Notes: generated by a model from the sequence alone, not told the origin. A DNA stretch of 5,701 nt from a virus (IMGVR_UViG_2606217110_000007:1-5701); one strand, 5' to 3'. Shown: positions 1,899 to 3,552, counted from the first letter of the stretch. Numbers and translations: made by a program.

Positions 1899-3394
1899 TA
1901 TGCTGACTCCTCTGAATACTGAAGACGGAACTGGTTAACCACCGCAAAGACACGTAACTGATTAACATAATCCGGCGGGAACAGCGTATTCAGTCGGTTC
2001 GGGTTATCCGCATCACGCTCAACTATCAGATACTGTTTAAACAGATCGTAATTTTCCACAATACCGGCACGCTCCATCTGACGATATGTCGCCAGAAGTT
2101 CCCCTTTGATAACGGCAGGAGTGACAATCGCCTGCCCCGGACCAAAACGGGTACCATCATTTGCCAGCTTGTGACGTCCGTACTTGCTTGTGATGACCGA
2201 TTTCAGTTTGCGAAGAACATATGCACTGGTATGCAGAGTTTCACTGTCCAGATAGCTGTTGTCTGCCACGCCATACGCATTCTTTTTGTAGGTGGTTACA
2301 GAACGCTGGATCCGCAACGTGCCGCCTTCCACATAAGCCGTCGCCACGCCGTGAGATAAAAGGGTCTGCTGCTCTGTCATGATGAATCGCTTACCTTTCG
2401 GTGCCGGAAGCATCCCCACCAGCTCCCCCGTCTGTGTCGGACGGGCAGGATCATTCCGGATAAATACCGCTTCACGGGCAAGGCGACTGGCAACCAGTTC
2501 ATCGACAGGCGACTGGGTTTCTTTTTCGTAACCGGCAAGCGTGATATGTTGCTGATTATGCATATCTCCGGCACCAACCAGCTCTGACAGCGTTCCCAGT
2601 TTTGCGGTATAGACATGCCCGTATAACTGGCGCGCATAACTCCAGCGACCGCTGCTGTCATTCATTTCGGTCATCATCATATTGATGGAGGCGGCATCGT
2701 TGAACGGCAGACCGATAAAATCGAATACCTCATCGCCCATAGCGGCAACAGCGGCGGTAAGATCAGGCGCTCCACTACCTGCAGTTCCGGCTTCCGTCAC
2801 GACCTGAAGTCCCGCAGGCAGAATTTCACCACCACCAGAACCATAATAATTCAGGCAGACAGGTAGCTCGTTACCATACAGCCCCTTATGACGGACAGTC
2901 AGTGTCACCACACCTGCATCAGATGACGCCGTAAACGGCAGGGTGATAACCCCATTTACCGCTTCCTTAATCGCGGTGGCAACCGCAGTGGCATTATCGC
3001 CATTCACCACAGGCACCTGTACACGGGAGCGCCCGACATACAGACTCAGGGTGCCGCTTTCCTCTGCTTCTCCGGTAACCGTCACCCTGACCGTTGCCGC
3101 CGCCCCTTTGGCTTCCGGTACCGCAATAACATACAGTTCACCGAAAGGATCTGTCTGACGGTATACTTCGACCATACGCGCCAGCTGGCTCCCCGCTCCA
3201 CAAATCTGACGGGCATAATCTGCCGACGGCATCAGCACCAGGCTGTTAACCTCAATGGCAGCATCGTTGCCTGCATGCCCAATCAGTAATGCAGGCGCGC
3301 TGGTCACCGCTGTATTTGCCGCAGAATTGTCCATCTCGGCGTAGAACAACGGCACCAGCGTATTCGACGGAACAGCACTAAAACTTATTGTCAT
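1898..3394 (-). CDS. Contractile tail sheath protein (Mu gpL-like)
   Basis: 498-aa ORF, the longest in the window, with Gly/Ala/Thr/Val-rich composition typical of sheath proteins (MTISFSAVPSNTLVPLFYAEMDNSAANTAV...). Length matches Mu gpL (about 495 aa) and it is followed by tube, chaperone and tape measure genes. Confidence 0.85.
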   Translation of the reverse strand: MTISFSAVPSNTLVPLFYAEMDNSAANTAVTSAPALLIGHAGNDAAIEVNSLVLMPSADYARQICGAGSQLARMVEVYRQTDPFGELYVIAVPEAKGAAATVRVTVTGEAEESGTLSLYVGRSRVQVPVVNGDNATAVATAIKEAVNGVITLPFTASSDAGVVTLTVRHKGLYGNELPVCLNYYGSGGGEILPAGLQVVTEAGTAGSGAPDLTAAVAAMGDEVFDFIGLPFNDAASINMMMTEMNDSSGRWSYARQLYGHVYTAKLGTLSELVGAGDMHNQQHITLAGYEKETQSPVDELVASRLAREAVFIRNDPARPTQTGELVGMLPAPKGKRFIMTEQQTLLSHGVATAYVEGGTLRIQRSVTTYKKNAYGVADNSYLDSETLHTSAYVLRKLKSVITSKYGRHKLANDGTRFGPGQAIVTPAVIKGELLATYRQMERAGIVENYDLFKQYLIVERDADNPNRLNTLFPPDYVNQLRVFAVVNQFRLQYSEESA

Positions 3395-3552
3395 GATTCT
3401 TTAGCCTTATCCTGTTTAACACGTACCACATCACACGCCGCTATACGGCGAAGCCAGTAGCTGCTTTCTTCCACATTTCGCCCGTCAGAAGGCAAAAGGT
3501 CTCCACGGGCAGGGTCAGGAACTGACCGCCCTTTCAGGGGTTTTACAAACAT
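3391..3552 (-). CDS. Small hypothetical protein (53 aa), not in the ORF track
   Basis: Open frame from ATG 3552..3550 to TGA 3393..3391 (MFVKPLKGRSVPDPARGDLLPSDGRNVEESSYWLRRIAACDVVRVKQDKAKES). Its stop overlaps the sheath ATG as ATGA, and it fills an otherwise empty 166-bp gap in a tightly packed operon. It has no convincing SD of its own, while the sheath gene has only a weak, distant one, which fits translational coupling. I recall a small ORF at the equivalent position between K and L in Mu. Confidence 0.3.
   Translation of the reverse strand: MFVKPLKGRSVPDPARGDLLPSDGRNVEESSYWLRRIAACDVVRVKQDKAKES

Follow-up and report, generated by a model that had tools for sequence, protein, structure and literature searches.

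In phage Mu, the small gene for gene product 38 (gp38) lies between the tail terminator gene (Mu K/gp37) and the tail sheath gene (Mu L/gp39), and a 4-nucleotide (nt) overlap, ATGA, joins it to the latter. In GenBank the product of this gene, Mu_38 (AF083977, 2492-2695), is named “putative sheath terminator protein” without a reference; the protein belongs to the family that Pfam terms DUF2635. The order terminator, DUF2635, sheath, tube is found in all annotated phages examined, namely SfV, ST64B, YeP1, PG1, BgVeeders33, phiAP1, PBb002 and Mu, and the hosts of the phages with this order include Pseudomonas (PG1), Burkholderia (BgVeeders33), Acetobacter (phiAP1) and Bordetella (PBb002). In phage phiP27 a small open reading frame (ORF) occupies the same slot, though it is unannotated there. 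The subject of this study is the corresponding ORF in a stretch of viral DNA, IMGVR_UViG_2606217110_000007:1-5701, the whole of which (5,701 nt) is referred to below as the window. By nucleotide search, the window is related to phages phiP27, SfV, SfI/II/IV and ST64B.

The ORF consists of 53 codons followed by TGA and encodes the peptide MFVKPLKGRSVPDPARGDLLPSDGRNVEESSYWLRRIAACDVVRVKQDKAKES. It is practically certain that this is a genuine protein-coding gene of the DUF2635 / Mu gp38 family. The distance from the stop of the terminator gene to the ATG of the sheath gene is 166 nt, and the ORF fills this gap. A 53-amino acid (aa) ORF in this gap, with ATGA over the sheath ATG, had already been described in a first-pass annotation of the window, and the ORF listing and the sequence confirm it. 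The same annotation had found no recognisable family for the peptide, which proved wrong. The small protein scores 62.3 bits against Pfam PF10948 (DUF2635), where the gathering cut-off is 26.6 bits (E 3.4e-17, residues 3-47 on positions 1-45 of a 46-position model), and it also matches PHROG 208 (E 2.6e-22). The score against the hidden Markov model, the core residues, the gene slot and purifying selection on an intact frame all agree in placing it in DUF2635. The gene and its parts are as follows.

3552..3391, minus strand: small gene of the DUF2635 / phage Mu gp38 family, 53 aa (ATG at 3552..3550, TGA at 3393..3391)
3552..3418, minus strand: predicted folded core, residues 1-45 (AlphaFold2 and alignment conservation)
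3417..3394, minus strand: variable charged C-terminal tail, residues 46-53 (falling predicted local distance difference test score, pLDDT; tails of relatives unconserved)
3394..3391, minus strand: stop-start overlap ATGA between the small gene and the sheath gene, with two bases (TG) common to TGA and the sheath ATG
3560..3553, minus strand: 8-nt spacer from the terminator stop to the small-gene ATG, with no Shine-Dalgarno (SD) sequence (from the sequence; duplex energy -2.7 kcal/mol)

The gene is already known, and annotation pipelines usually list DUF2635. Annotated members of the family occur in thousands of genomes as well as in SfV, ST64B and Mu, and the name that the NCBI pipeline gives the orthologue, “DUF2635 domain-containing protein”, appears in about 1100 of the 5426 complete E. 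coli genomes. A HMMER search over 1.84 billion representative proteins places the family in 1684 clusters at 50% identity, and the small peptide has tblastn matches in 50 records of phages, which range from those of Enterobacteria, through those of Pseudomonas, Burkholderia, Bordetella and Acetobacter, to Mu itself. The NCBIfam models gave no match to the small protein, and sequence and profile searches of the PDB gave no solved homologue. A weak N-terminal PDB profile match to a GroES-like co-chaperonin (E 1.5) was rejected, as hhalign gave it a probability of 0.7%. The C-terminal domain of lambda gpFI (2LSM), B. subtilis YqbF (2HJQ), the GINS B-domain and the N-domain of ribosomal protein L9 are listed as comparison systems.

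The closest sequenced phage for the small-gene interval is phiP27 (NC_003356), in which the ORF at 2501-2662, between L43 and L44, encodes a 98% identical peptide and has the same junctions. This intact orthologue is unannotated in the GenBank and RefSeq records of phiP27, and likewise in SfIV, which is the same omission as in the window. Identity to the small peptide is 74% for SfV orf10 (“similar to phage Mu GP38”) and ST64B Sb12, and 44% for Mu gp38 over the matched 43-residue core. The window protein shares with the Mu gp38 family, which includes SfV orf10, ST64B Sb12 and FluMu gp38, its size class and a 45-residue N-terminal core with the motifs P5, D13-P14, W33, R35-R36 and xGDV. The slot itself is identical in Mu. 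The two genes differ at both ends: the C-terminal tail has 8 residues in the window protein and about 22 in Mu gp38, and the Mu gene starts within gene K (14-nt overlap), whereas the window ORF starts 8 nt past the terminator stop.

Evidence that the frame is translated comes from a comparison of 43 loci, made up of the window, 9 phages and 33 loci from genomes. Every one of them has an intact frame, with no stop and no frameshift. Over a 44-codon core (35 distinct sequences, 511 pairs), the median Nei-Gojobori ratio of nonsynonymous to synonymous substitution rates (dN/dS) is 0.21, and column entropy at codon positions 1, 2 and 3 is 0.49, 0.46 and 1.17, which means that the third position varies about 2.5-fold more. 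The family also reaches phages that the nucleotide search did not recover: those of distant hosts, namely Pseudomonas, Burkholderia, Bordetella and Acetobacter, and Mu keep 40-50% identity at the aa level. The frame is thus real and encodes a conserved product, given its integrity in 43 of 43 loci and the dN/dS of 0.21.

The predicted structure agrees with this. An AlphaFold2 model built from a 25-sequence alignment has a mean pLDDT of 88.7, with 45 residues at 90 or above, and suggests an alpha/beta core in which short bridges lie between strands at residues 2-5 and 42-45, and residues 31-38 form a helix. The pLDDT drops along residues 46-53 and is below 50 at 50-53, so that the last residues are disordered in the model. 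In alignments A1-A3 the conserved core positions are P5, D13-P14, L20, G24, V27, W33, R35-R36 and G40-D41, all of which except G40 are present in the window. The C-terminal tails of relatives range from 5 to 90 residues with no conservation. In sum, purifying selection acts on a 45-residue core, and the short charged tail behind it is unconstrained.

The first-pass annotation had held that the interval could equally be a non-coding leader, and had proposed comparing frame conservation with nucleotide-only conservation in relatives. The comparison, with the frame kept in all 43 loci, places the constraint on the peptide. A non-coding leader is rejected because the frame is intact, dN/dS is low, variation falls mostly at third codon positions and the fold is confidently predicted, and because scans of the gap found no Rfam family, no promoter and no terminator, while the mRNA fold around the sheath start is no better than that of shuffles (z = -0.81). 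An ATG-initiated ORF of at least 50 codons arises on the coding strand in 2.2% of shuffles of the 166-nt gap; the length would by itself be mildly unexpected, and the reality of the ORF rests on homology.

The position of the gene was surveyed in IMG/VR loci with a Mu-type tube protein, of which 71 were drawn and 55, not all mutually independent, had enough upstream sequence. DUF2635 or a member of a divergent sub-family stands at the sheath start in 48 of the 55 loci, and two more have a weaker look-alike. In the remaining 5, the terminator gene abuts the sheath gene or there is no recognisable small ORF. The small gene of the window thus occupies the canonical slot of an SfV/phiP27/ST64B-type prophage with a Mu-type contractile tail.

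Two divergent sub-families occupy the pre-sheath slot, one in loci L068, L072, L079, L081 and L089 and the other in L099, L103 and L109-L119. Their motifs are LKHP..G.F...G...WPND.FT.RRL.DG.V and ALKH.PSQ.GFE.DGTARWPADQFTF. Both sub-families fall below the Pfam DUF2635 threshold and are linked to DUF2635 by hhalign with probabilities of 94% and 96%. Since profile-profile comparison connects these sub-threshold groups to it, the DUF2635 family extends beyond what Pfam records.

The gene is also retained outside complete phages. In the tailocin cluster of P. fluorescens Q8r1-96, in which no head gene is annotated, a DUF2635 gene is kept beside the terminator and sheath genes. This retention suggests a role in the tail itself and not in head joining.

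A second indication of function comes from longer proteins that begin with the same domain. Long forms were sought among the best 150 of the 1684 representative clusters, and a few were found; a further word-index search of proteins yielded short ones only. In these the DUF2635 core is always N-terminal (Pfam E 1e-13 to 1e-15), and is followed by a proline-rich linker and a C-terminal region. The forms are listed below.

P0148, 402 aa: fn3 domain, which is immunoglobulin (Ig)-like, after DUF2635
P0237, 756 aa: SASA carbohydrate-esterase domain after DUF2635
P0187, 737 aa: C-terminal region without other Pfam match
P0184, 171 aa: C-terminal region without other Pfam match
P0164: C-terminal region without other Pfam match

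The gene for P0237 follows a complete Mu-type baseplate set (Mu gp48-like), at the place of the fibre genes, and P0187 and P0184 are encoded in the same type of three-gene cassette. Besides P0237, the prophage encoding it carries a normal stand-alone DUF2635 gene ahead of the sheath gene, and a DUF2635 form of 137 aa was found in the canonical pre-sheath slot. The long forms differ from the window protein in their large C-terminal regions and, in the case of P0237, P0187 and P0184, in their location in baseplate/fibre cassettes instead of before the sheath gene. The cassette (L043/L047/L049, L048, L121) encodes a protein of about 280 aa, then one of 65-98 aa, then the DUF2635-headed protein. 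The first of these contains Gly_rich_2 in two of three cases, and the small one matches, in one case and below threshold, the podophage GP4 fibre-tail adaptor family. Virion-attached proteins usually consist of a conserved N-terminal module and exchangeable domains that point outwards. By the same arrangement, an N-terminal DUF2635 core followed by swappable C-terminal domains suggests that the core is a docking module.

The favoured account of the window is that the ORF is a DUF2635 gene, that its product has a small docking or accessory role in the tail, and that its translation is coupled to that of its neighbours; to this statement as a whole we assign a probability of roughly 55%. Taken separately, the tail-docking or accessory mechanism in contractile-tail morphogenesis is tentative, and falls slightly short of even odds. 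In this mechanism, the folded core would attach to a component of the tail, the sheath/terminator end being the most plausible site, and the small protein's C-terminus would remain free. A free C-terminus would explain why fibre-like, Ig-like or esterase domains are fused C-terminally in related phages. The terminator, small, sheath and tube genes would be read as one tightly packed translation unit, in which a ribosome ending the terminator gene probably reinitiates on the small gene, and a ribosome ending the small gene probably aids initiation at the weak SD of the sheath gene. Coupling of this kind would add to sheath expression and would not be the reason for the existence of the gene.

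A broader form of the docking proposal is more doubtful. DUF2635 may be a portable tail-docking module, which stands alone before nearly all Mu-type sheath genes and in some phages anchors, from the N-terminus, exchangeable fibre, Ig-like or esterase proteins. The stand-alone copy might then mark or occupy a docking site at the sheath or neck, or it might be a released sheath-assembly factor.

Several observations weigh against a docked tail protein. The binding partner is proposed from gene order and domain fusions only. The gene for P0148 has head-tail connector genes around it, and its contig shows none for the sheath, which means that the partner of DUF2635 need not be the sheath. In the window, codon 40 (3433-3435) is TGT for Cys, where Gly is nearly invariant (at least 90% in alignment A2), giving AACDV in place of AAGDV; the phiP27 copy has Gly at this position. 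Cys40 may be a polymorphism of no consequence or may instead point to relaxed selection on the gene here. In the literature on DUF2635, Mu gp38 and tailocin proteomics, no functional study was found. In the 2025 cryo-electron microscopy (cryo-EM) study of Mu at 3.3-3.8 A, gp38 is listed as “probably structural” but is unresolved in both extended and contracted virions (PMC11915804).

The last observation concerns phage 7-7-1, whose gp125 (L120, 4733-4939) is a 68-aa protein encoded between a structural protein in the terminator position and the sheath gene. Among viral proteins it gives the best structural match to the small-protein model (Foldseek E 0.024, template modelling score 0.74), and it aligns in register with the family profile (hhalign E 4.5e-4, probability 33%). 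By fold, register and position, gp125 is a probable remote homologue of DUF2635. It was not among the 24 virion proteins detected by mass spectrometry, which included its neighbours and a protein of 28 aa (PMC3517404). The results for Mu and for 7-7-1 are both more easily reconciled with an assembly factor outside the virion than with a stoichiometric structural protein.

The main rival explanation is of that type. The small protein could be a transient assembly chaperone for the sheath (or the terminator), which binds new sheath protein at about 1:1, blocks premature polymerisation and is released on assembly. We consider this unlikely, though it draws support from the absence of gp38 from the Mu cryo-EM maps and of the 7-7-1 counterpart from the virion proteome, from the position of the gene directly before the sheath gene, to which it is stop-start linked in 47 of 52 loci, and from its retention in the headless tailocin cluster. 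The N-terminal fusions to fibre-like, fn3 and esterase proteins in fibre cassettes, however, are expected of a virion anchor and not of a released chaperone. In addition, output at the level of the sheath is doubtful for a small ORF that has no SD and lies behind a gene of which only six product copies are required. Five to seven Mu-type loci also manage without the small gene.

A second rival follows the GenBank label of Mu_38 and makes the protein a sheath terminator, which would cap the last sheath ring as T4 gp15 or P2 gpS does. The gene adjoins the tail-terminator gene, and the product name, unreferenced as it is, also favours this role. In Mu, however, the last sheath ring is capped by a hairpin of gp37 (PMC11915804), and the label therefore conflicts with the Mu structure. 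Moreover, no relationship in sequence or fold was found between the small protein and known sheath terminators or tail completion proteins of the T4 gp15 or P2 gpS type. This role is improbable.

The third rival concerns the junctions of the gene, which also bear on the coupling component of the favoured account. SD strength was expressed as the anti-SD duplex energy of starts in the window. The small ORF start has -2.7 kcal/mol, about the median of all window positions, and so has effectively no SD. The sheath start has a weak but not absent SD, TAAGG at 3409..3405 with a spacer of 10 nt, at -4.5 kcal/mol (24th percentile of window positions); this SD lies within the tail codons of the small gene. 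The tube and chaperone starts have -8.6 and -11.4 kcal/mol. These values agree with what the first-pass annotation had said of both SDs.

Tight spacing is conserved on both sides of the small gene in 52 loci. Its stop lies between -20 and +6 nt from the sheath start in 47 of them, and the junctions include overlaps of 4 nt (16 loci), 1 nt (12 loci) and 11 or 17 nt (9 loci). On the other side, the terminator stop lies between -14 and +15 nt from the small-gene start in nearly all loci, and the spacer is 8 nt in 14 relatives and 3-9 nt in most. This stop-start spacing makes translational coupling along the terminator, small gene and sheath block plausible. Stop-start coupling along a whole block is typical of phage late operons, and the ATGA/TGATG coupled pairs of such operons likewise combine a stop-start overlap with a weak downstream SD. 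The junction between the small gene and the sheath gene is indistinguishable from this general pattern, and the sheath and tube genes of the window also overlap, by 1 nt, so that the junction type is not specific to the small gene/sheath pair.

While coupling is plausible, a dependence of sheath translation on the small ORF, as first suggested for the window, is not supported, and it is not the general rule. The sheath SD is at -7 kcal/mol or stronger in half of the relatives (range -3.2 to -12.3), often encoded by the GGE/GGx codons that end the tail of the small protein; four loci have a gap of 61-64 nt between the small gene and the sheath gene; and other loci have no small gene. In view of these relatives, the small gene is not generally required for sheath expression. 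In Mu, the terminator is present in six copies and the sheath in about 180 (PMC11915804), which suggests that sheath synthesis cannot rest solely on ribosomes arriving from the terminator gene.

This bears on the proposal that the ORF is a coupling device and nothing else, bringing ribosomes to a weak sheath start by means of a dispensable peptide. Such a device would be in keeping with the ATGA overlap, with a sheath SD as weak as -4.5 kcal/mol and with a small ORF that has no SD. The proposal is nevertheless largely refuted, and very improbable, in view of the dN/dS of 0.21, the 40-50% aa identity in distant-host phages beyond the reach of nucleotide search, the confident predicted fold, the recurrence of the domain within large proteins elsewhere in phage genomes, the relatives with a strong sheath SD or 61-64-nt gaps, and a gap in which scans found no Rfam family, promoter or terminator. 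Finally, a chance open frame in an intergenic spacer, although a 53-codon ATG ORF appears in about 2% of gap shuffles, is refuted by family homology and purifying selection.

The minus strand of the window as a whole encodes a head-tail connector and tail module, as identified with Pfam and PHROG. The neighbours of the small gene are as follows.

5344..5021, minus strand: adaptor gene
5024..4614, minus strand: head closure gene
4669..4118, minus strand: tail completion gene
4121..3561, minus strand: tail terminator gene, upstream neighbour of the small ORF (Pfam Phage_tail_terminator, E 9e-27)
3394..1898, minus strand: tail sheath gene of the Mu gpL type, downstream neighbour (Phage_sheath_1, Phage_sheath_1C, Phage_sheath_domII; PHROG 165, E 2e-218)
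1898..1542, minus strand: tube gene
1542..1213, minus strand: tail assembly chaperone gene
From about 1127, minus strand: tape measure gene, 5′ part only, which leaves the window at its left end

Two of these genes have further features. With the mechanical GTG at 4669 as its start, the tail completion gene shares 56 nt with the head closure gene, and its PHROG match sets in at residue 12. The same gene pair overlaps by 26-29 nt in SfV and ST64B, so that the true start in the window is probably slightly downstream of 4669. The tail assembly chaperone gene (1542..1213) is overlapped by an open stretch in another frame, which extends about 25 codons beyond the stop, to just before the start of the tape measure gene at about 1127 (region about 1130-1542, minus strand). 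This layout is the usual one for a programmed frameshift product; for Mu gp41, a GenBank note records a verified -2 frameshift.

For the window itself little changes: its “unlisted” ORF is an ordinary gap in annotation, and the gene is known and widespread. In a modest way the result reaches further, as nearly all Mu-type contractile tails, a tailocin cluster among them, come with DUF2635. The gene-order survey, the retention in the tailocin and the domain fusions narrow its role to that of a tail-docking module or a transient sheath-assembly factor. If the portable-module proposal is true, DUF2635 would belong to the “minimal” Mu-type contractile tail as a part which structural studies have overlooked until now.

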